Assembly (NCBI GenBank): GCA_041568755.1
Contig: JBFFZF010000001.1
Location: 1,033 to 65,032, forward strand
Reading direction: 5' to 3'
Length of the DNA: 64,000 bases
From: Longimicrobiales bacterium
GTDB taxonomy: Bacteria; Gemmatimonadota; Gemmatimonadetes; Longimicrobiales; RSA9
The position numbers and the translations under genes are program-made. Position 1 is the stretch's first letter, and the number at the start of each line of letters is the position of its first letter. The notes beneath the pieces are model-generated. The model was not told the origin of the DNA. It was given only the letters and a program-made list of their open reading frames with translations, and ran no database searches. Positions 2,776-45,969 of the stretch are shown in pieces.

Positions 2776-3617
2776 TCCGGGCCGGCACGCGCGACGAGCT
2801 GCAGCCTGTGCTGGCGGCCGCCCGCGCCGCCGGCCGGCGCATCGCCCTGGTGCCGACCATGGGCGCCCTGCACGAGGGACACCTCTCCCTGATCGACCGT
2901 GCGCGGCGGGCCGCCGACTTCATCGTGATGTCCGTCTTCGTCAATCCGCTGCAGTTCGGCCCCGGCGAGGACTACGCACAGTACCCCCGTGACGTGGAGC
3001 GGGACGCGACACTGGCAGCGGCACGCGGTGTCGACCTGCTGTTCGCTCCGGACCGCTCGATCATGTATCCGTACGGCGACCCGGCGGCGCTCATCGCTGC
3101 CCCGGGCCTGGACAGCCGGCTGTGCGGCGCGTTCCGACCGGGCCACTTCCGCGGCGTGCTCACCGTCGTAGCCAAGCTGTTCCACGTGACAGGCGCGGAC
3201 GTGGCCGTGTTCGGCCGCAAGGACCTGCAGCAGCTCGTCATGATCCGGGCGATGGTGCGCGATCTGGATTTCCCCGTCGAGATCCTCGATGCACCGATCG
3301 TCCGCGAAGCCGACGGCCTGGCGCTCAGCTCACGCAACGCCTACCTGTCGACCGAAGAGCGGCCCCAGGCTGCACGCCTGCATCAGTCGCTCGAGCGGGC
3401 CCAGGCCGCATTCAGCGGAGGCGAGGTTGCCGCTGCAGGCCTCATCGCGCACGTGACGGCCGTCCTGTCCGGCGGAAACCTGGTGCGGCCGCAGTACGTG
3501 GATGTCGTGGATGCCACGACGCTGTCCGGTGTCGAGCGCGCACGCCCCGGCGATGTGATCGCCGTTGCGGCGCACGTCGGCTCGACCCGCCTCATCGACA
3601 ACCACACGCTGACATGA
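2772..3617 (+). CDS. panC: pantoate--beta-alanine ligase
   Basis: 281 aa. 'ALVPTMGALHEGHLSLI' is the HIGH-type PanC motif. Coupled to panB. Confidence 0.95.
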   Translation: MIRAGTRDELQPVLAAARAAGRRIALVPTMGALHEGHLSLIDRARRAADFIVMSVFVNPLQFGPGEDYAQYPRDVERDATLAAARGVDLLFAPDRSIMYPYGDPAALIAAPGLDSRLCGAFRPGHFRGVLTVVAKLFHVTGADVAVFGRKDLQQLVMIRAMVRDLDFPVEILDAPIVREADGLALSSRNAYLSTEERPQAARLHQSLERAQAAFSGGEVAAAGLIAHVTAVLSGGNLVRPQYVDVVDATTLSGVERARPGDVIAVAAHVGSTRLIDNHTLT

Positions 3618-8086: not shown

Positions 8087-9967
8087 ATGCGAACGAGTTA
8101 CCGGTCCGGTCCGGTGGGAATGTTGCGTGGCGATTCGGCCGGGCAGCGCATCCGCGTGGCCGGCTGGGTCCACCGGCGCCGCGACCTGGGCGGGCTGATC
8201 TTTCTGGACCTGCGTGACCGGACCGGCCGGCTGCAGCTTTCGCTGGGGCCGGCCTGGACGCCGCCCGCGGTGCTCGAACGGGCGCGGCGCGTGGGTGCAG
8301 AGTGGGTCATTGCGGCCGAGGGCATGCTGGAACGGCGACCGGCGGAAGCCGTGAATCCGGAGTTGGCAACCGGCGAGGTCGAATTGCACGTGGAGTCGCT
8401 CGACGTGCTGTCCGAGGCCGAGACGCCGCCCATCCCGATCGCTCTCGGTGCCGGCGACGAACTGCCCGCGGAGGAGTTGCGGCTGCGCTACCGCTATCTG
8501 GATCTGCGCCGGGAAGAACTCCTGCGCAACCTCACGTTGCGCCACCGGCTCCTGCAATCCGTGCGGCGCAGCCTGTCCGATCAGGGGTTCCTGGAAATCG
8601 AGACGCCGATGCTGACGCGGCGGACACCCGAGGGGGCGCGCGATTACCTCGTGCCCAGCCGGGTCCATCCGGGGGAGTTCTACGCCCTGCCGCAGTCGCC
8701 CCAGCTCTACAAGCAGCTGCTCATGGTCGCCGGCTACGACCGGTACTTCCAGATCGCGCGCTGTCTGCGTGACGAGGACCTGCGCGCCGATCGACAACCG
8801 GAGTTCACGCAGATCGACGCCGAGATGTCGTTCGTCGACGAGAACGACGTCTTCGCGGCGGCCGAAGGCATGCTGGCCGCGGTGTGGCGCGAGCTGCTGG
8901 GCGTGGAGCTCGCCGTGCCGTTCCCGCGCATCCGTTACGAGGATGCCATGGCACGCTACGGGACGGACAAGCCCGACCTGCGTTTCGACCTGGCGTTCGC
9001 CGACTGGACCGCGCTGCTGCAGCAGGCCGATTTCCGGCTCTTCCAGGCGACGCGCGATTCGGGCCACCGCATCCGCGGATTCGTCGTGCCCGGCGGTGCG
9101 GCACTGTCCCGCCGCGAACTCGATGAACTCACCGTCGTGGCAAAGTCGGCAGGCGCGGCCGGGGCCCTGTGGTGCCGGCACGCCGAGGACGGGCTGGCCG
9201 GGCCGTTCGCACGCGCGCTCGAAGGCGGACTGGGCGAACGGTTCAAGGAGGAAGCCGGTCTCTCTGCGGGATCGCTGGCCGTGCTCGTCATGGGTCCGTT
9301 CCATGGCCAGGCGGCGGACGGCGCGGCGCCGGTGGCAACCGTCGATGGCGCGCTCGATGCGCTGCGCCGCCACCTGGCTGGCCGGCTGGAGCTGCGCAAG
9401 CCGGGGTCGCACGCCTGGGCGTGGATCACCGAGTTCCCGCTGTTCGACTGGGACGCCGAGGCCGGCCGTCTGGTCGCGATGCACCACCCGTTCACGGCGC
9501 CGCACCCCGACGACACCGCGACGCTGATGGAGGCGGCGGCCCGCGTCGTCGACGTCGAGGCCGGCCAGCGCCTGTACGCAGCCGGGCTCCGTTCCCGTGC
9601 GTACGATGCGGTGTATAACGGCCATGAGATGGCCAGCGGCTCGATCCGGATCCACGATCGTGCGTTGCAGCGGGCCGTGTTCCGCGCGCTCGGCATCGGC
9701 GAGCAGGAGGCGGAGGCCAAGTTCGGCTTCCTGCTCGAAGCGTTCCGCCACGGCGCGCCGCCGCACGGCGGATTCGCGTTCGGCTTCGACCGCCTGGCGA
9801 TGCTGATGGTCGGCGGCGGCAGCCTGCGCGACGTGATCGCTTTTCCCAAGACGACGCAGGCCCGGGCCCTCTTCGAGGGTGCCCCCTCCGCTGTCGATGC
9901 GGCCGACCTGGCGGACCTGCACATCCGCAGCACAGCCGATTCCGGAGGAACCCGACCCCGTGGATAG
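8087..9967 (+). CDS. aspS: aspartate--tRNA ligase
   Basis: 'VAGWVHRRRDLGGLIFLDLRDRTGRLQ' is the OB-fold region. 'FYALPQSPQLYKQLLMVAG' and 'DRYFQIARCLRDEDLRADRQPEFTQID' are class II motifs. Start is ATG 8087, with GTG 8075 as an alternative. Confidence 0.95.
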   Translation: MRTSYRSGPVGMLRGDSAGQRIRVAGWVHRRRDLGGLIFLDLRDRTGRLQLSLGPAWTPPAVLERARRVGAEWVIAAEGMLERRPAEAVNPELATGEVELHVESLDVLSEAETPPIPIALGAGDELPAEELRLRYRYLDLRREELLRNLTLRHRLLQSVRRSLSDQGFLEIETPMLTRRTPEGARDYLVPSRVHPGEFYALPQSPQLYKQLLMVAGYDRYFQIARCLRDEDLRADRQPEFTQIDAEMSFVDENDVFAAAEGMLAAVWRELLGVELAVPFPRIRYEDAMARYGTDKPDLRFDLAFADWTALLQQADFRLFQATRDSGHRIRGFVVPGGAALSRRELDELTVVAKSAGAAGALWCRHAEDGLAGPFARALEGGLGERFKEEAGLSAGSLAVLVMGPFHGQAADGAAPVATVDGALDALRRHLAGRLELRKPGSHAWAWITEFPLFDWDAEAGRLVAMHHPFTAPHPDDTATLMEAAARVVDVEAGQRLYAAGLRSRAYDAVYNGHEMASGSIRIHDRALQRAVFRALGIGEQEAEAKFGFLLEAFRHGAPPHGGFAFGFDRLAMLMVGGGSLRDVIAFPKTTQARALFEGAPSAVDAADLADLHIRSTADSGGTRPRG

Positions 9968-10928
9968 CTCGACCGTCGAACACCGTCTGACGACCGAAGG
10001 CGCCGACTACCTGCTCCTGGCGGGCGTCAACGACCGCAACCTGCAGGAGCTGGCCCAGCTGTCCGGCTGCCGTGTCGTCCTGCGCGGCGATCACCTCATC
10101 CTGTCGGGCGCACTCGGCAACGTGGAACGCCTGGTGCCGGTGGCCGAGCACCTGATCCGTCAGGCACGCATGGCCAAGCCTGTCGGACCCGAAGAGATCC
10201 GGCGCGTCTTCGATGCGGCGCCGGAACGACGCGAGACCGGCAACGGCGCCGCGCAGCGGGCCGACGTCGAGGTCGTTTTCGCCGGATTGCGCAAGCTCAT
10301 CGGTGCCAAGTCGGAGGGGCAGCGCACCTACATGGAGGCCATCGCCAGTGCCGAGATCGTCGTGGCCATCGGTCCGGCAGGCACGGGCAAGACGTACCTG
10401 GCAGTGGCCGCGGCCATCGACGCGCTGCGCAAGAACCGGGTCAAACGCATCATCCTGGCGCGTCCCGCCGTCGAGGCGGGCGAGAACCTGGGGTTCCTGC
10501 CCGGCGACATGCAGGAGAAGGTCGACCCGTATCTGCGTCCGCTCTACGATGCGCTGGATGACATCATGCCGTCCGACTGGGTGCGCCGTGCCATCGAATC
10601 GCGCACCATCGAGATCGCGCCGCTGGCCTACATGCGCGGGCGGACGCTGTCGGACGCTTTCGTCATCCTGGACGAGGCACAGAATGCGACGCGTGCCCAG
10701 ATGAAGATGTTCCTGACGCGGCTGGGCCTGAACTCGCGCGTCGTCGTGACCGGAGACAAGACCCAGATCGATCTGCCCCGGCGGGAGGATTCGGGGCTGC
10801 TCCAGGTCGAGCGGATCCTGCACAGCATCGAGGGCATCCGCATACTCTATCTCGACGAGGCCGACGTGGTCCGCCACAGGCTCGTGACGAGCATCATCCG
10901 GGCCTACGAGGACGACCAGGCGGAGTGA
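9960..10928 (+). CDS. phoH: PhoH-family ATPase
   Basis: The GTG at 9960 is in frame and overlaps the aspS end. Walker A 'GPAGTGKTYLAVA' and 'ILDEAQN' are present, and the length (322 aa) is typical. Confidence 0.88.
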   Translation: MDSSTVEHRLTTEGADYLLLAGVNDRNLQELAQLSGCRVVLRGDHLILSGALGNVERLVPVAEHLIRQARMAKPVGPEEIRRVFDAAPERRETGNGAAQRADVEVVFAGLRKLIGAKSEGQRTYMEAIASAEIVVAIGPAGTGKTYLAVAAAIDALRKNRVKRIILARPAVEAGENLGFLPGDMQEKVDPYLRPLYDALDDIMPSDWVRRAIESRTIEIAPLAYMRGRTLSDAFVILDEAQNATRAQMKMFLTRLGLNSRVVVTGDKTQIDLPRREDSGLLQVERILHSIEGIRILYLDEADVVRHRLVTSIIRAYEDDQAE

Positions 10929-35698: not shown

Positions 35699-35956
35699 AT
35701 GGCACACAAGAAAGGCGTAGGCTCCAGCAAGAACGGCCGGGACTCGAACCCGCAGTACCTGGGCGTGAAGGTGTACGGCGGTGAATTCGTGCCGGCCGGC
35801 GGCATCATCGTGCGCCAGCGAGGCACGAAGTTCCATCCGGGCCGCAACGTCTCGCGCGGCCGGGACGACACGCTGTTTTCGCTGATCGACGGGGTCGTGA
35901 CGTTCGAGCGGCGCGACCGCCAACGGCAGCGCATCTCCGTCTATCCCGTCGAGTGA
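35699..35956 (+). CDS. rpmA: 50S ribosomal protein L27
   Basis: '[44 protein letters not shown]'. Confidence 0.97.
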
Positions 35957-35991
35957 TTACCGCCTGAACGGGCGACACGACTGATGGGGAT

Positions 35992-36030
35992 CCGGGCCCC
36001 GGCGTGACTGCCGGGGCCCGGGTGTATTCT
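35992..36030 (+). terminator. intrinsic terminator candidate after rplU-rpmA
   Basis: Perfect 12-bp stem, CCGGGCCCCGGC (35992-36003) paired with GCCGGGGCCCGG (36010-36021), with a 6-nt loop. It is followed by GTGTATTCT. Confidence 0.7.
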
Positions 36031-36088
36031 ACCGGAATGCGCCACCCGGGTTGGGGGTGGGGGACCATCAGCCGCCGGAGGGTCGACC

Positions 36089-37522
36089 GTGATCCTCAGC
36101 CTGCATCGGAACCGGGTCATGCGGGGGCTGGTCGTCATCATTGGCGGCATGGTCCTGCTGGATGTGCTCATCGACGTGCTCCAGTTCGGCTTCGGGCATG
36201 CATCGCTGGGCGGTCTGCAGCCGCTGTTCGATGTGGGTGACGAAGGGACGATTCCGACGTGGTTCGCAGCGGTCCAGCTGCTGGGCGCCAGTGCACTGCT
36301 CGCCCTGATCGCCACTGTCGAGCAACGGTGCGGGCGCGGGGCGATGCCATGGTGGGTCCTCGCTGTCGGCTTTCTCTACCTCTCCTTCGATGAGGCGGCG
36401 GAAGTTCACGAGCAGGCGGGGCTGCTCCTGCGCGGCATCGTGAAGAGGGATGGCATCTTCTACTTCCGCTGGGTCGTCATCGCCGTGCCCCTGTGTATCG
36501 CGTTGTACCTGCTGTTCCGCGGTTTCCTTCGGCGCCTGCCGGCGGGTACGCGCCGCGGGACGCTGCTGGGTGGCGCACTCTTCCTCGGCGGTGCGGTCGG
36601 CATGGAGATGGTGAGCGGCTGGCTCATCTCCCGCGGCCTGTCGGGGGATCTGGGGAACGGACTGCTGAACGGGCTCGAGAACGCGCTGGAACTGGCCGGC
36701 ATAGCCGTCTTCGTCGGTGCGCTGTTCGCACACATCGAGGGTCTCGAGCCGACGCCGGATTCCACGGGCCACCCGCCGGCAACAGCCGCGGCGCACAACC
36801 GGGTTCAGCCGATCGATCTGCGTCTGAGGCCGGAGCGCTGGGGGCGCGGCCTCGTGGTTGCCGCGATCGCCATCCTGCTCGCCACGGCGCTGGCTGTCGC
36901 CTACCGCTTCGGGCCTGCCGCCGGGAAGTTGGGGCTCCTGACCTCGCTTCTCGACCCGACCCGGAACCGGAGCCTGCCGGTCTGGGGCGTCTCCATGCTT
37001 GCGGCCCTGGCGGCGAGTTTGAGCCTGTTCGCGCGACCCGGAGACAGAACGGGCACGGCCGGGGAGCGCGTCCGCTTCGGCCTCGTGCTCGGCCTGGTTG
37101 CTCTTTCGGTCGATCAGGCCATGGGGTTCCCCGGGCACGGCGCACCGATCTTCCCGCTGGCGGCGCTGGTGCCCGGCCGCCTCGCGTCCGTCTGGCAGGT
37201 GACGGGTACCCTCCTGCTGTGCGTGTTGCTGCTGTCGATGTTCGTTGCGACCCGGAGCCTGCGTGGACCCATCCGCCGGACGTGGTCGGCGTCAGGCGTG
37301 CTCCTCGCACTGGGGTGGGCCGGAACGCCGCTGCTGCTCTCCCGGGTTGCGCCAAGAAATCCGGCGGCCGGCGTCATCGGCGGCGCGGGGGTAGCCGTGC
37401 TTCTCGCGGGTCTGATCCTGTTCGTCTCCGCCGTGCCGATGGTGATGGCCAGGGGCGAACCGATCCTCGAAGCCGATCCCGGAGCGCGCGTCGAGCCGCT
37501 CGCTTCGTCCGGCCATTCCTGA
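36089..37522 (+). CDS. hypothetical polytopic membrane protein (477 aa)
   Basis: Long ORF at native high GC with many hydrophobic helices. No family recognised. GTG start; an ATG at 36119 is possible. Confidence 0.6.
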   Translation: MILSLHRNRVMRGLVVIIGGMVLLDVLIDVLQFGFGHASLGGLQPLFDVGDEGTIPTWFAAVQLLGASALLALIATVEQRCGRGAMPWWVLAVGFLYLSFDEAAEVHEQAGLLLRGIVKRDGIFYFRWVVIAVPLCIALYLLFRGFLRRLPAGTRRGTLLGGALFLGGAVGMEMVSGWLISRGLSGDLGNGLLNGLENALELAGIAVFVGALFAHIEGLEPTPDSTGHPPATAAAHNRVQPIDLRLRPERWGRGLVVAAIAILLATALAVAYRFGPAAGKLGLLTSLLDPTRNRSLPVWGVSMLAALAASLSLFARPGDRTGTAGERVRFGLVLGLVALSVDQAMGFPGHGAPIFPLAALVPGRLASVWQVTGTLLLCVLLLSMFVATRSLRGPIRRTWSASGVLLALGWAGTPLLLSRVAPRNPAAGVIGGAGVAVLLAGLILFVSAVPMVMARGEPILEADPGARVEPLASSGHS

Positions 37523-37534
37523 GCCGGCGCGCGA

Positions 37535-37690
37535 TCAGGCGGCGGAGGATGCAGCGCCCTCCGGCGCCATTTCACCCGACGCCGCGTGGGTGTGAGCGGG
37601 CGCCTGCGCGCGCGTCAGCAGGCTGACGGTGATCAGAGCGATGATGTTCACGAGCGCAATTCGGTCTATCCAGCTTGGTGTGGCAGACCC
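37535..37690 (-). pseudogene. orphan 3' fragment of a sodium:solute symporter gene (last TM helix plus tail)
   Basis: Minus-frame translation gives '..PSWIDRIALVNIIALITVSLLTRAQAPAH..*'. It aligns with the end of the intact SSS protein, 'GVIVNIAVLVVVSLLTK' (9/17 identical). An in-frame stop lies upstream at 37742-37744 and no start is available. Confidence 0.65.
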
Positions 37691-37704
37691 TCGCTCGCTG
37701 GATC

Positions 37705-37741
37705 GGGAGCGGGCACCGGCGAACCGTCGGTGTCCGCTCCC
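37705..37741 (-). terminator. GC-rich hairpin downstream of the 62-codon ORF, at the left junction of the islet
   Basis: On the minus strand: GGGAGCGGACACCG, a 9-nt loop, then CGGTGCCCGCTCCC (14-bp stem with 1 mismatch). It begins 13 nt after the ORF stop. No U-tract. Confidence 0.4.
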
Positions 37742-37754
37742 TCAGCAGCTCCAC

Positions 37755-37943
37755 TCAGTAGCAATCCGTCCCTCTGAGGATCTTCTGCCAGCGCTTATCC
37801 CAGTCGACCTCAGTCTGGCAGCTCTGCGGGGGCTCGTCGTCGGTCCACGCCTGGATGAAGGTCACAACCAAGACAAATCTCGGCTCGGCGCTCCGATCCA
37901 ACACGGCCACGCGACTTGGTGCGGCGGCGGCGGCTCTGGCCAT
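37755..37943 (-). CDS. hypothetical 62-aa protein (ORFan)
   Basis: The ATG at 37943 is preceded by AGGAGG with a 4-nt spacer. Sequence: 'MARAAAAAPSRVAVLDRSAEPRFVLVVTFIQAWTDDEPPQSCQTEVDWDKRWQKILRGTDCY'. The 90-aa track version lacks an RBS. Confidence 0.5.
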   Translation of the reverse strand: MARAAAAAPSRVAVLDRSAEPRFVLVVTFIQAWTDDEPPQSCQTEVDWDKRWQKILRGTDCY

Positions 37944-37971
37944 GATGCCTCCTAGGCCTGGGTGGTGTGTC

Positions 37972-38000
37972 ATGCTAGTATCCATGGTATCTTTTCGCAA
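37972..38000 (-). promoter_or_regulatory. candidate promoter TTGCGA-N17-TAGCAT for the 62-codon ORF
   Basis: Read on the minus strand: TTGCGA (38000-37995), a 17-nt spacer, then TAGCAT (37977-37972). It lies 28 nt upstream of the ATG at 37943. Confidence 0.45.
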
Positions 38001-38020
38001 GATCATGTTCTCGCACTGTG

Positions 38021-38059
38021 TTGACATCTGGCCACACCTGCGATAGCATGCCTATGCTA
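38021..38059 (+). promoter_or_regulatory. candidate promoter TTGACA-N17-TAGCAT with an overlapping palindromic operator, TAGCAT-GCCT-ATGCTA
   Basis: TTGACA at 38021-38026, a 17-nt spacer, then TAGCAT at 38044-38049. Its inverted partner ATGCTA lies at 38054-38059. Confidence 0.55.
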
Positions 38060-38174
38060 ATTATGACGTCCTGTAGCCAATGAGACCCTTTCGGCTGCCA
38101 ACGGCATCGCCTGGTCGCCGGTTTCTTTGAGTTCTCGGATGGGCCCGAGCGTCTCAGCACAAGGCGGTGAGGAA

Positions 38175-39347
38175 ATGGAAGAGTTGAGGGCGAGGAAGCG
38201 GCTGGATGCACGCGAAAAGATTGATATGGTCATGAAGCGTTTTGGTCCGCTCCGCCAAGGCAAGAGAATGCCAACGCTGCAGCAGCTCAAGTCGCTCTAT
38301 TTTCCGGAGCGTGACCCCTCAGTAATCTCTCGTGCGATAACGAGCGCGTTCAAAGAAGGTCTCGTCGCCGTTGTGGAAGTTCGCCAGCCATCCGCATCGC
38401 TGCCCGTTAGAAAGCCGCTGCTGGAGAAGGCCCTCCTTAAGATCTACAGGGATCTACACGGCGCCATCGTGATCGATGACGATGACGATTCCCTTGGGCA
38501 ACGCGAAGCCGGCGATCGACTTCACGAGAAATTGGGCTTAGCGATGGCGGAAGCGCTGTCGAGTGGGTCTATGTTCAGGGATGGAGACGTCATCGGCCTT
38601 GGCAGCGGCCGGGGCGTGTATTATACCGTGGCGGCGTTGGAGTCGCTAACACGTGTCGACAAACTCAGAACGCAGTCCCTCACTCTCGTATCTTTGACCG
38701 GAGACATGCACGTTCGCGATCATAGCAAGCAGCTGAATTTTGTCATGGATGCAAACGACCACATCAGCATCCTTGGGAGATGTTTCGGTCCCCCAATCGG
38801 CCTGCACAAGGTTTATAGCCGGGGTGTTTTCGACCCACAGGGCGCGTTCACTGGTCCAGTGCCCGACATCGCCCTCGTTGGTGTAGGCGCTTTGGTAGAA
38901 GGCCATCGGTTGTTCGATTTTGAGCCGACCGACCGCGACGATCCGCTTTTCGATGAGCGGCGTGACATTCAAGAGCTCGTTCGACTCTCTTCTCGTCTTA
39001 CTGAACTATACGGCGGCGAGTACTGTCCAGTTGGAGATATTTCCAATTACCTGTTCTACGTCCCGCCACCACGAGGACGAAACGACGTGGATGAGGGCAT
39101 TCGTGACCAACTGGTGAGCGAATTGAAGAAATACATCAAGCGACTGAACAAGAAACTCGTCACGATTCAGGAAGACCAGCTTGCAGACGTCAACACGATC
39201 ATTCTGGTAGCGGGCACTGCCTGGAAACGACAGGCGATCCATTCTTTGTTGACGGGCGGCGCGGACGGCGAGATGATTCGGACGCGAATACGGCATTTGT
39301 GCACCGATCGAACAACAGCAGAAGAGCTCATTGACATGAACGGCTGA
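38175..39347 (+). CDS. atypical SorC/CggR-like protein (HTH plus sugar-phosphate-binding-like domain), 390 aa
   Basis: 'DPSVISRAITSAFKEGLVAVVEV' is HTH-like. 'DVIGLGSGRGVYYTVAAL' and 'IILVAGTAWKRQAIHSLLTGG...HLCTDRTTAEELI' follow the SorC effector-domain pattern. Low GC. Start ATG 38175 follows GGTGAGG; alternatives are 38127 and 38139. Confidence 0.6.
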   Translation: MEELRARKRLDAREKIDMVMKRFGPLRQGKRMPTLQQLKSLYFPERDPSVISRAITSAFKEGLVAVVEVRQPSASLPVRKPLLEKALLKIYRDLHGAIVIDDDDDSLGQREAGDRLHEKLGLAMAEALSSGSMFRDGDVIGLGSGRGVYYTVAALESLTRVDKLRTQSLTLVSLTGDMHVRDHSKQLNFVMDANDHISILGRCFGPPIGLHKVYSRGVFDPQGAFTGPVPDIALVGVGALVEGHRLFDFEPTDRDDPLFDERRDIQELVRLSSRLTELYGGEYCPVGDISNYLFYVPPPRGRNDVDEGIRDQLVSELKKYIKRLNKKLVTIQEDQLADVNTIILVAGTAWKRQAIHSLLTGGADGEMIRTRIRHLCTDRTTAEELIDMNG

Positions 39348-39419
39348 ATCTGGCTGGGCGGTCGTTGCAACAGAATCAAGTGACGTAGTGATGATTGACT
39401 GCCAGCTTCCACAGTGCCA

Positions 39420-40886
39420 CTAACTGGGCTCCTCGACGAACGCCGCGACGTGTCGCGAAGTCTGCTGCTTCGTAAGCAGGCTCACCACCACGAGCACGGC
39501 GATGTTCACGATCACGCCCAGAATGCCCTCGTGGATCTCGTATGGCCGGAGGTCCGGCTTCCACAGGAAGAAGATGGTCGTTGCGGAACCGGCGATGAGG
39601 CCGGACAGCACGCCCGGCGTGGTGGCGCGCCGCCAGTAGAGTGCCGCGTACACGGGCGGGGCGATCTGGTCGATCAGGCCGTACGAGGTGAGCAGCAGCC
39701 AGACCAGGTTGGGCTGCGCGACGACGGCCAGATAGTAGGCGATCGCGCCGACCGAGAGCACGAGCCCCTGCATGATGTGCCGGCGCCGCTGTTCGTCGAC
39801 CTTGAAGAAGGGCGCGATGCCGTCCTCGATCGCGATCGAGGCGGCCGCATGCAGCAACCCGTCGCCCGTCGACATGGAAGCGGCCAGCGCCCCCGCGCAG
39901 AACAGCCCGACGATGATCGCCGGCATGCCGGTCTCGAGCAGCAGGTGGGGCAGGATGTGGTCCGGGTTGTCCGGCGCGCTGGCGAACAGCACGCCCGCGA
40001 ATCCGACGAGCAGCAGCGGGATGAGGAAGAGCTGGAACGTCGGATACAGCACGACGCTGCGGCGCAGTGTGCGCTCGTCACGGGCCGTGAACGCCTTCAT
40101 GAAGATGTGCGGCCACATCGCGATGTCGATCGCGGACGACAGGATGGCGGTCGAGTAGCCGCCCCAGCTCCAGCGGGTCCCGTCCGCGCGCAGCCCGGGC
40201 AGCTCGAGCAGTTCCGGTCGCGCCGCAGCGATGCTCTCGAACATCGGGCCGATGCCGCCGTACAGCAGGTGCGGGATGTACAGGCCGACGCCCCACGCCA
40301 CCGCCACCATCACGAAGCCCTGGAACACGTTGGTCCAGCCGACCGCGGTGGCGCCGCCCAGCAGGACGTAGACGATGACCACGCCGTACGCCAGCGCCGC
40401 GCCCAGCCAGAACGGCACGTGTCCTTCCGTCACGGTAGTGAAGACGATGCCGGCCCCGCTCATCTGCAGCATCACATAGGGCACGAACGCGGCCACCGAG
40501 ATGACGGCGAGGAGCACGGACAGCGTGCGGGCAGGGAAACGGCCGGTGACCAGCTGCGCCTGCGTCACGTAGCCGTGCGACCGTCCGAGCCGGGCGGCGC
40601 GCGCCCCGACGAAATACCACGGGGCCATGCCGAGCACCCCGTAGCCCAGGATGTAGAGCGCAGCGACACCGCGCGAGTAGGCCCAGCCCGGTCCGCCCAG
40701 GAAGGCGAAGGCGCTGAACACGGTGCCGCCGATGATGAAGTAGAGCGGCAGCAGCCCGAACTGGCGATCCGCGGCGACGTAGCCGGTGACGTTGTGGCTG
40801 GCGCGCCGCCCGGACACGAGGCCGACGACGAGCGTGAAGACGAGATAGGCGGAGACGATGGCGGTGACGATGTGCCAGCGCTCCAT
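39420..40886 (-). CDS. sodium:solute symporter (SSS) family transporter
   Basis: 488 aa and polytopic. 'YVAADRQFGLLPLYFIIGGTVFSAFAFLGGPGWAYSRG' is typical of the SSS family. Confidence 0.88.
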   Translation of the reverse strand: MERWHIVTAIVSAYLVFTLVVGLVSGRRASHNVTGYVAADRQFGLLPLYFIIGGTVFSAFAFLGGPGWAYSRGVAALYILGYGVLGMAPWYFVGARAARLGRSHGYVTQAQLVTGRFPARTLSVLLAVISVAAFVPYVMLQMSGAGIVFTTVTEGHVPFWLGAALAYGVVIVYVLLGGATAVGWTNVFQGFVMVAVAWGVGLYIPHLLYGGIGPMFESIAAARPELLELPGLRADGTRWSWGGYSTAILSSAIDIAMWPHIFMKAFTARDERTLRRSVVLYPTFQLFLIPLLLVGFAGVLFASAPDNPDHILPHLLLETGMPAIIVGLFCAGALAASMSTGDGLLHAAASIAIEDGIAPFFKVDEQRRRHIMQGLVLSVGAIAYYLAVVAQPNLVWLLLTSYGLIDQIAPPVYAALYWRRATTPGVLSGLIAGSATTIFFLWKPDLRPYEIHEGILGVIVNIAVLVVVSLLTKQQTSRHVAAFVEEPS

Positions 40887-41385: not shown

Positions 41386-42165
41386 TCAGCGGCCGGTGAA
41401 GCGCGCGTCCCGCTTCTCCAGGAAGGCACGCACGCCTTCGACGCGGTCTTCGCTCGCGAACGCGGTGATGAAGAGGTCCCGCTCATGCGCCAGGCCGGCG
41501 GCCAGCGGCGCTTCCAGCGCGGCGCGGACGGCAGCCTTGGCCAGCGCGAGCGCGACCGGTGACGAGGCGGCCAGCCCGCGCGCGATCTCGAGCGTCCGGT
41601 CGCGCAGCTCGGCGTCTTCGAAGACCCAGTCGACGAGTCCGATGCGTTCAGCCTCGGTCGCGTCGATCAGTTCGCCGGTCAGGATCATGCGCAGGGCGCG
41701 GCCGGTGCCCACCAGCCGGGGCAGCCGCTGCGTGCCACCGCCGCCGGGCAGCAGGCCCAGCCGGATCTCGGGCTGGCCCAGTCGCGCGGAGCGGGCCGCG
41801 ATGCGCAGGTCGCAGGCCAGCGCGATCTCGCAGCCGCCGCCCAGCGCGTAGCCGTTGATCATGGCCAGGGTCGGTTTCTCGAATGCGGCGATCTCGTCGA
41901 ACGGACGGCGGCCGCTCATGGCCACGCGCTGCTCGACAGGCGAGCGCTCGGCGAACTCCGCGATATCCGCACCGGCGATGAACGCGCGGTCGCCGGCGCC
42001 GGTGAAGAGGACGACGCGCACATCATCGTCGGCACGAAGCTGGTCTAGCGCGGCGATCAGCTCCTTCCGGACCGTCGCATTGAGGGCATTGCGCTTCTCC
42101 GGCCGGTTGATGACGACCGTGGCGATGTGATCCTCGATTTCGACGAGCAGTGTTTCCCAGCTCAT
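41386..42165 (-). CDS. enoyl-CoA hydratase (crotonase)
   Basis: 'INRPEKRNALN', 'AFIAGADI', 'TLAMINGYALGGGCEIALACDLRIA' and 'GQPEIRLGLLPGGGGTQRL'. Confidence 0.92.
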   Translation of the reverse strand: MSWETLLVEIEDHIATVVINRPEKRNALNATVRKELIAALDQLRADDDVRVVLFTGAGDRAFIAGADIAEFAERSPVEQRVAMSGRRPFDEIAAFEKPTLAMINGYALGGGCEIALACDLRIAARSARLGQPEIRLGLLPGGGGTQRLPRLVGTGRALRMILTGELIDATEAERIGLVDWVFEDAELRDRTLEIARGLAASSPVALALAKAAVRAALEAPLAAGLAHERDLFITAFASEDRVEGVRAFLEKRDARFTGR

Positions 42166-45147: not shown

Positions 45148-45969
45148 TCAGCGACCCTTGAACGACGCTTTCCGCTTCTCGACGTACGCCGCCAGCCCTT
45201 CCTTCGCGTCGCTGCTCTGGAACAGCAGCTGCTGGAGCTCGCGTTCGACCGCGAGCGCGTCCTGGTAGGGCAGTTCGGCGCCGGTCTGCACGGAGCGCTT
45301 GATGTTGCCGATCGCTTTGGCCGCCATGTTGGGCGGCGTGAAGCGCCGGGCGTATTCCATAACCTTGTCCAGGAACTCGTCTCGGCTCGCGGCCTCCCAG
45401 ACTTCGTTCACGATGCCGAGCTCGCGGGCTTCCTCGAAATCGAAGGTGCGGCCCGTGACCATGAGTTCGATCGCGCGCGTCTTGCCGACCAGCCGGGCAA
45501 GCCGCTGCGTGCCTCCCGTCCCGGGCAGCACACCCAGGTTGACTTCGGGCAGGCCGATCTTGCCCGCGCCGGCCCGGGCGATGCGCAGGTCGGCGGCCAT
45601 GGCGATCTCCAGCCCGCCGCCGACGGTGTGCCCGCTGAGCGCCGCGATCACGAGCTTGGGCGTCTGCTCGAACCGGTTCAGCGTCTCGTTGGCGTGGAGA
45701 CAGAAGTAATACTTGAACTGGGGCGTAACGGTGTTGAGCATCTGGATGTTGGCGCCGGCACAGAAGAACTTCTCGCCGGCCCCGACCAGCACGATGACGT
45801 ACACGTCATCGTCCATCCGGGCCCGGAGGATCGCGGAATCCAGGGCCTGCATCATCTCGTAGGTGTAGGTGTTCGCCGGCGGGTCGTCGAGCGTGAGGAT
45901 GGCGACGCCGTCCTGCATCTCGTACGACACGAGCGGCTTGGTCTGCTGCTCTTCCATGACTCTGGTCAT
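45148..45969 (-). CDS. enoyl-CoA hydratase/isomerase family protein
   Basis: The ATG at 45969 is preceded by GGAGG at 6 nt. 'FFCAGANI', 'VIAALSGHTVGGGLEIAMAADLRIA' and 'GLPEVNLGVLPGTGGTQRL'. Confidence 0.9.
   Translation of the reverse strand: MTRVMEEQQTKPLVSYEMQDGVAILTLDDPPANTYTYEMMQALDSAILRARMDDDVYVIVLVGAGEKFFCAGANIQMLNTVTPQFKYYFCLHANETLNRFEQTPKLVIAALSGHTVGGGLEIAMAADLRIARAGAGKIGLPEVNLGVLPGTGGTQRLARLVGKTRAIELMVTGRTFDFEEARELGIVNEVWEAASRDEFLDKVMEYARRFTPPNMAAKAIGNIKRSVQTGAELPYQDALAVERELQQLLFQSSDAKEGLAAYVEKRKASFKGR

Follow-up and report, generated by a model that had tools for sequence, protein, structure and literature searches.

An orphan symporter 3' end beside a strain-variable islet in a Longimicrobiales genome

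Gene order around the symporter

Here we describe a stretch of 64,000 nucleotides, referred to throughout as the window, from a metagenome-assembled contig of a Longimicrobiales bacterium (Gemmatimonadota) with about 70% GC. Its + strand carries, in order, genes for an acyl-CoA dehydrogenase, RNase E/G and the ribosomal proteins L21 (rplU) and L27 (rpmA). The terminator-like hairpin after rpmA is followed by a membrane-protein gene (+), an orphan 3' end of a sodium:solute symporter (SSS) gene (-), a low-GC islet and an intact SSS gene (-), beyond which lie DUF3311 and then a beta-oxidation-like operon. Measured over 300-nt intervals, the GC content of the islet is about 0.51-0.59, versus about 0.70 for the host. 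The orphan 3' end is called the stub in what follows. The features that frame it are:

35699-35956, + strand: rpmA (L27)
35992-36021: terminator-like hairpin 3' of rpmA; the same hairpin is found in L001, 8 nt past the SSS stop
36089-37522, + strand: membrane-protein gene, 477 aa, with two repeats of about 230 aa (E=0.001)
37523-37534: 12-nt spacer between the convergent stops of the membrane-protein gene and the stub
37535-37657, - strand: orphan SSS 3' stub, 40 codons (ALVNIIALITVSLLTRAQAPAHTHAASGEMAPEGAASSAA) plus a TGA stop
37643-37653, - strand: 11-nt exact match TCGTGAACATC, found also at 39501-39511
39420-40886, - strand: intact SSS symporter gene, 488 aa

The family of the membrane protein is very large and uncharacterised, with 7403 representative clusters at E<=1e-3 and both one-unit and two-unit forms. 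Pfam, NCBIfam and PADLOC contain no model that matches the protein. In a word-index homology search it found only itself, and a metagenome scan yielded one distant locus.

Sequence and limits of the stub

Translation of the minus strand over 37535-37780 gives ...GSATPSWIDRIALVNIIALITVSLLTRAQAPAHTHAASGEMAPEGAASSAA*. Translation confirmed both the stub stop (37535-37537) and the upstream in-frame stop (37742-37744) that had been reported in a preliminary description made from the sequence alone, and the 12-nt gap between the stub and the membrane-gene stop was confirmed as well. A recount agreed with its figures of 9 identical residues out of 17 in the helix and 31 matching nucleotides out of 48 between 37613-37660 and 39471-39518. 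The similarity of the fragment to SSS proteins thus stood, but the upstream edge, which had been put at about 37690, had to be corrected to about 37657; also, the intact SSS protein, said to end in ...TSRH*, in fact ends in ...TSRHVAAFVEEPS*, with a TAG stop at 39420-39422.

The SSS homology of the stub runs from about 37654-37657 (LVN) to the stop codon, with none upstream. We place its edge at about 37657 because the near-invariant EIHEGILG motif is absent just upstream of the stub. The counterpart in the intact gene is the last 33 codons or so (39420-39518). The stub reads LVNIIALITVSLLTRAQAPAH..., then 18 residues and the TGA, and comprises the last transmembrane (TM) helix, the family motif SLLT[RK]xQxxxH, a tail and the stop codon. 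The whole subfamily signature, VN...VSLLT[RK]xQxxxH followed by tail and stop, is therefore present, and VN rather than VH at its start places the stub in the Longimicrobiales subclade. The conserved F/Y of the ...AAFV motif is missing. The 11-mer TCGTGAACATC, which codes for the conserved VNI, marks the upstream edge of the homology; it is the longest exact match between the two SSS ends and occurs only twice in the 64 kb.

No start codon in the stub would give a product of at least 40 aa, and the 68-aa frame that contains it found no match in Pfam. Nor is there a complete translatable transporter at this position, EIHEGILG being missing and the frame interrupted by the stop at 37742-37744. 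Because it has no usable start codon, the stub is judged from its sequence to be dead and non-functional. It is nevertheless kept in the conspecific contigs L063-L066 with one mismatch in 126 nt. A role as terminator of the membrane-protein gene was considered and rejected, as the stub folds no better than shuffled sequences (z=-1.2).

Significance of the symporter match

Local alignment of the stub with the intact SSS protein gave a BLOSUM62 score of 57, compared with 29.8 +/- 4.3 for shuffled sequences, none of which reached 57 in 2000 trials; the similarity first seen by eye is thus significant against shuffled controls. Within the whole 488-aa protein, the best match of the stub is the C-terminal helix. 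We also built an SSS family HMM from 119 homologues, excluding the window's own SSS protein. Among 1097 six-frame segments of the window the stub was the second-best match (E=0.015, model positions 459-488) and the next had E=3.2, so that the stub is the sole extra SSS match; in 8084 segments from 21 related GC-rich loci, the same model found no extra match at E<=1. The stub thereby matches the C-terminal segment (last TM helix) of the sodium:solute symporter family (PF00474). It is a real orphan SSS 3' end. Chance likeness of a short hydrophobic stretch to a TM helix, in GC-rich DNA with all frames open, or a chimera in a metagenome-assembled contig, is effectively refuted already by the profile and shuffle statistics, by the succession of helix, family-specific motif, tail of typical length and stop codon, and by the independent assembly of the same structure in several MAGs.

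Gene content of the islet

The islet and its edges contain the following features:

37657-39407: strain-variable segment (the islet), 1751 nt; GC 0.56 over 37659-39407
37705-37741, - strand: GC-rich hairpin just 3' of the small islet gene (z=-3.2; 0 of 200 shuffles fold as well)
37755-37943, - strand: small islet gene, 62 aa from an ATG at 37943, with AGGAGG (a strong Shine-Dalgarno) upstream
38175-39347, + strand: divergent SorC/LsrR/DeoR-like regulator gene, 390 aa; ORF open from 38127
39393-39408, - strand: motif AAGCTGGCAGTCAATC at the right end of the islet; in L063 a single copy, AAGCTGGCAGTCGATC, adjoins the stub
39408-39419, - strand: the 12 nt after the SSS stop, TGGCACTGTGGA, present in both haplotypes; right edge of the variable segment

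The 62-aa protein has no family match, and the hairpin that follows its gene is probably its terminator. A relationship between this left-hand hairpin of the islet and the rpmA hairpin was tried and set aside, the likeness being at chance level and the islet hairpin single-copy in the window. The SorC-like gene is preceded by a promoter-like (sigma-70-like) site at 38021-38049. Besides itself, the regulator has 30 homologues among 5.8 billion proteins, all at 40% identity or less. The homologues in L051, L053, L054 and L056 are single genes from other phyla in unrelated contexts; their GC content is below the locus average in both loci measured (L051 and L053), and in L053 the gene sits among mobile-element genes, beside RadC, HicA and DUF2958. 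The SorC-like gene behaves like mobile cargo without a recognisable vehicle. No integrase or recombinase was found among the islet ORFs with Pfam and NCBIfam, and the islet genes had no match in PADLOC, viral contigs or a plasmid collection. Searching 35900-39600 with Rfam revealed no credible RNA family, the one lncRNA match being sub-threshold (13.9 bits, with a gathering threshold of 70). Two further candidates were discarded: a conserved small partner gene of the SorC-like protein is unsupported (E=0.17), and the 86-aa 'Sugar-bind' gene calls in conspecific contigs, considered as frameshifts, are contig-end artefacts.

An islet-free haplotype in conspecific contigs

Clustering at 90% identity gave three further sequences each for the SSS and membrane proteins and none for the islet protein. 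The conspecific contigs are 99.6-99.8% identical to the window. The islet is present in eight assemblies (the window and seven others), and two contigs break exactly at its edges, L059 at 39408 and L065 at 37643. L063, which is 99.8% identical to the window, does not carry the islet; the intact SSS 3' end and the stub are nevertheless both present in it, with 88 nt between them. Its path runs from the SSS end (...FVEEPS*, TAG) through the 12 nt TGGCACTGTGGA and 76 nt absent from the window, which stand in place of the islet at L063 2756-2831, to the stub, taken up from 37656 with one mismatch. The left edge of the variable segment coincides, within one codon, with the start of the SSS homology.

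The preliminary description had proposed that the islet recombined into the SSS gene, brought in the 3' end seen today and pushed the resident end aside. The arrangement on which this was based, two SSS ends in the same orientation with acquired DNA between them, is indeed seen in the window. However, L063 keeps both ends without the islet, and hence the islet did not create the duplication. It had also been anticipated that in an islet-free relative the stub would be contiguous with the SSS body; in L063 the two are instead separated by the 88 nt, and in the more distant islet-free relative L002 the contiguous SSS end is clade-typical rather than stub-like. We conclude that the islet is a strain-variable cassette in an older junction, and that it arrived later. 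Among the regions compared in conspecific contigs, its SNP density of 1.3/kb is the second lowest (L21-L27 is lower still, at 0.56/kb, and most flanking regions have 2-3.7/kb), which is weakly consistent with later arrival.

Neither haplotype can be derived from the other by a simple insertion or deletion. The motif AAGCTGGCAGTC(A/G)ATC adjoins the SSS stop in the window and the stub in L063, and CCAAGCTGG recurs at the left end of the islet (37670-37678). The 59-nt segment X of L063 occurs nowhere else, and its candidacy as an SSS tail homologue was rejected because the likeness is at chance level. As a separate observation, the L063 stub is in frame with the SSS ORF, 29 codons past the TAG (L063 2741-2954), a state that has a 1-in-3 chance; read-through of the TAG would append a linker and one more TM helix to the symporter.

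The gap between the symporter and rpmA in relatives

Synteny in which SSS faces rpmA-rplU-rng is conserved across Gemmatimonadota. In both the nearest relative, L001 (SSS 86% identical), and L003 (SSS 77% identical), the SSS stop directly faces rpmA, which implies that about 36022-39419, including the membrane-protein gene and the stub, is extra in the window. The rpmA hairpin forms the left edge of all the sequence that is extra relative to L001. This hairpin (L001 ~3577-3605) is GC-rich and conserved despite saturated synonymous sites, and its position 8 nt from the SSS stop of L001 suggests a shared bidirectional terminator.

A third relative, L002 (SSS 85% identical), has no islet, and the stop of its intact SSS gene lies 13 nt from that of a convergent membrane-gene homologue, as compared with the 12 nt that separate the stub from the membrane gene in the window. 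The stub therefore sits where an SSS gene would terminate, as had been surmised in the preliminary description. The L002 membrane gene, at the same spot, encodes a protein 43-46% identical to that of the window and among its nearest relatives out of about 7400 representatives; L001 and L003 have no such gene there. Within the species, the membrane protein changes about three times faster than SSS (4-6 versus 1-2 substitutions), and the SNP density of its gene, 6.3/kb, is 2-3 times that of its flanks. Synonymous-site identity was discarded as a clock for this gene, being saturated in all comparisons.

A second SSS gene or fragment was found in none of 21 related loci. The alternative first offered, a decayed second SSS paralogue, is dropped because no second SSS gene exists among the genomes sampled. 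The interval 36021-36088 was searched for a remnant of a native SSS tail and gave chance-level matches only. In more distant Gemmatimonadota, a chorismate-mutase-like ORF, a lytic-transglycosylase-like gene or both occupy the gap (L004 ~9636-9800, L005 ~9500-9800; also the gaps of L005, L008 and L018), whose content is lineage-specific.

The current 3' end looks native and the stub is the outlier

The 3' end now carried by the intact SSS gene has a host-like GC3 of 0.87. Identity of the gene to L001 and L002 falls in the last 50 codons no more than L001 and L002 differ from each other there, and a sliding comparison along the gene revealed no breakpoint apart from the overall fall in identity over the variable tail. 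The tail matches that of L001 at 19 of 22 nt, a value reached in 0 of 500 shuffles. In a 22-residue end block the current end shares 15 residues with each of the two nearest orthologues, P0002 and P0003, exactly as many as these share with each other. The window SSS protein is 12-13 residues shorter than those of L001 and L002. The current 3' end is clade-native, most likely the resident gene's own vertically inherited end, and its supply by the islet, as had been proposed, is not supported.

The stub presents a different picture. Its end block shares 11/22 residues with P0002, 9/22 with P0003 and 11/22 with the current end; the mean over 117 unrelated family members is 10.6/22, so that its similarity to the two orthologues is no higher than to the family at large. 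The best matches of the stub, at 15/22, are to SSS proteins only about 70% identical to the resident SSS, and the closest C-termini are those of the Longimicrobiales SSS proteins P0108 and P0052 (67-72% identical to the resident). With the family HMM the stub obtains 11.4 bits, a score in the range that functional members give (16.7 +/- 4.5). We simulated neutral decay starting from the current end, or from that of L001 or L002, until identity had fallen to 10-12/22; scores then averaged 0.4 bits, and the probability of reaching at least 11.4 was 0.001. This argues that the stub is not a decayed local copy and that it diverged under selection in a working SSS gene. Furthermore, since the window is saturated at synonymous sites in comparison with every non-conspecific relative, any neutral relic must be much younger than the split of the window's lineage from L001 and L002.

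We defined a statistic, T, as the similarity of the stub to the native clade minus its similarity to the 117 other family members. The stub has T = -0.25. Clade ends allowed to decay at up to 30% of residues gave T = +2.2 to +3.2 (P(T <= observed) <= 0.002), and non-clade ends gave T = +0.4 to +0.55 (sd ~1.1; P = 0.29). By the local density ratio, an origin of the stub outside the clade is favoured by about 15-150 to 1, on a comparison block of 22 residues (66 nt) and a native clade of three sequences. The stub, then, is not clade-like, and it is the stub and not the current end that is the outlier. Nucleotide counts cannot separate the models: over 42 nt, the stub agrees with L001 and L002 at 25-26 positions, the current end at 33-34. 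Nucleotide identity over blocks of 42, 63 or 66 nt was accordingly rejected as a means of picking the native copy, as it has too little power. Within the 22-residue block, how closely a sequence agrees with the current end bears no relation to its overall relatedness (Spearman ~0).

Origin of the stub

The explanation that we favour, with about as much confidence as doubt, is that the stub is xenologous and was carried along when the membrane-protein gene was acquired from another Longimicrobiales lineage by one-sided illegitimate recombination. The donor would have been a lineage with the gene order of L002, in which SSS is followed after 12-13 nt by the membrane gene, and the block transferred would have consisted of the membrane gene together with the last 120 nt or so of its SSS neighbour. 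The block would have been inserted with the rpmA terminator on one side of it and the resident SSS stop on the other, through homologous pairing at the well-conserved rplU/rpmA side and an illegitimate join at the poorly conserved SSS-3' side, that is, by homology-facilitated illegitimate recombination (HFIR). In such an event the resident SSS gene would have retained its own end, and the 1.75-kb islet would be a separate cassette that now occupies the junction. Co-transfer of the membrane gene and the mechanism of recombination are what we infer from the arrangement. No donor with a near-identical stub and membrane gene was found, and no microhomology could be assigned at the junction, where the two haplotypes carry different sequences.

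HFIR is an established, experimentally documented route for the one-sided capture of foreign DNA (PMC3240628; PMC5361080, which cites de Vries & Wackernagel 2002 and Prudhomme et al. 2002), and it has been invoked for the orphan 3' regions of Rhs, CDI and T6SS loci (PMC3240628; PMC5361080). A homologous anchor is combined with an illegitimate junction that has 3-10 nt of microhomology; DNA without homology is taken up in this way, and partial copies of genes can be left behind. The locus described here resembles it in having one conserved anchor, plausibly rplU/rpmA, and one illegitimate junction; it differs in that the process is deduced from the end product alone, the junction having since been remodelled into two haplotypes.

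In Rhs, CDI and T6SS effector loci, orphan 3' fragments are left by C-terminal displacement (Kirchberger et al. 2017, PMC5361080; Jackson et al. 2009, PMC2935791, as cited in PMC5361080). The likeness to our locus lies in a truncated 3' end downstream of an intact gene, in the same orientation and with foreign DNA between, and in HFIR as the proposed mechanism. Here, however, the gene is a housekeeping-type transporter without a polymorphic toxin domain or an immunity gene, there is a single stub, and the evidence makes the stub rather than the expressed end the foreign copy, which is the reverse polarity.

Displacement of this kind, with the stub as the original 3' end of the resident gene, is the strongest of the alternatives and still an unlikely one. 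DNA from a related strain would have paired in or upstream of SSS and supplied the present end together with downstream DNA, the join being illegitimate and about 120 nt before the resident stop. Such a history would account for the position of the stub 12 nt from the membrane-gene stop, like that of the intact SSS gene in L002 (13 nt), and for the stop context GCCTGATCGC common to the stub and L002, but the shared context is not significant when unanchored (38 of 500 shuffles). The membrane gene might in that case be ancestral: it is near to being the closest relative of the L002 gene, and given its fast evolution the 43-46% identity could reflect vertical descent, which would put the stub at the ancestral resident position. 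Loss of the F/Y of ...AAFV is what one would expect in a relic, and the current protein falls short of those of L001 and L002 by 12-13 residues. Were the replacement end essential, a haplotype with both ends and no islet would be expected under displacement too. Against displacement, the stub has no excess similarity to the native clade (P<=0.002), and the current end is clade-like in both protein and nucleotides, with host GC3. Its drop in identity is no greater than that of L001 versus L002 in the same region, and the flanks on either side are equally related to L001 and L003, without phylogenetic discordance.

That the second end arose in situ, by tandem duplication of the SSS 3' end or as a decayed tandem full-length paralogue that then diverged, we regard as improbable. 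The two copies are adjacent and in the same orientation, and the L063 stub is in frame with the SSS ORF, 29 codons after the TAG, but the in-frame state has a 1-in-3 chance. Neutral decay to the divergence observed destroys the family likeness (P=0.001); with synonymous sites saturated against even the nearest relatives, an old neutral copy would be unrecognisable. Moreover, 0 of 21 related loci have a second SSS gene or fragment.

It is similarly improbable, in our estimation, that a site dedicated to cassette exchange is bounded by the 12 nt past the SSS stop and by the stub's 5' edge. Equally doubtful is the corresponding exchange, in which the 76 nt and the 1751 nt (with its rare SorC-like regulator) would have been swapped via AAGCTGGCAGTC by a recombinase encoded elsewhere. 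If this were true, the stub would be part of the architecture of the site and not a passive scar.

In E. coli, e14 and phage 21 integrate in the 3' end of icd and leave a displaced icd 3' pseudogene. We give very little credence to an islet of this type, the remnant of an element whose recombinase integrated at the SSS 3'-end core TCGTGAACATC, which bore a mimic 3' end and whose integrase has, with most of the element, since been lost or swapped. As with icd, a duplicate 3' end flanks inserted DNA and the gene is still functional. Moreover, the 11-nt core lies at the upstream homology edge and at only two places in the 64 kb, the strain-variable segment starts within one codon of that edge, and short AAGCTGG... 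repeats stand at both ends of the islet. Yet the 11-mer encodes the conserved VNI, and a run of this length is not rare in a 63-nt alignment of 60% identity (estimated at ~0.08); apart from it, the repeat is only about 60% identical. No integrase or recombinase family is matched by the islet ORFs (Pfam, NCBIfam), and the islet genes are unmatched in PADLOC, viral contigs and plasmids. The expressed end, supposedly brought by the element, is native-like, and the islet-free haplotype is not a restored contiguous gene: no empty site with such a gene was found.

The stub is a known kind of scar, an ordinary one, of past gene transfer, and the slot between SSS and rpmA, two strongly syntenic core genes in Gemmatimonadota, has been refilled several times. 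From orphan 3' stubs of this sort one can read at which point and in what manner a chromosome took in foreign DNA. That a stub and an islet are neighbours does not mean that the islet made the stub, and claims of this kind can be tested directly with contigs from populations of the same environment. As far as can be predicted from the sequence, there should be no wider biological consequence, since the symporter is intact and the stub would not be expressed as protein.

Other repeats in the window

Upstream of the membrane-protein gene, a TGGGGG repeat (36050-36064; L064 ~9957-9977) is present in two versus three copies among strains. The high SNP density of the spacer between rpmA and the membrane gene reflects a change in the number of a 6-nt repeat. 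On the far side of the intact SSS gene, two enoyl-CoA hydratase paralogues share a stretch of about 140 nt that is 76% identical (41706-41841 versus 45483-45621), a case of ordinary paralogy.
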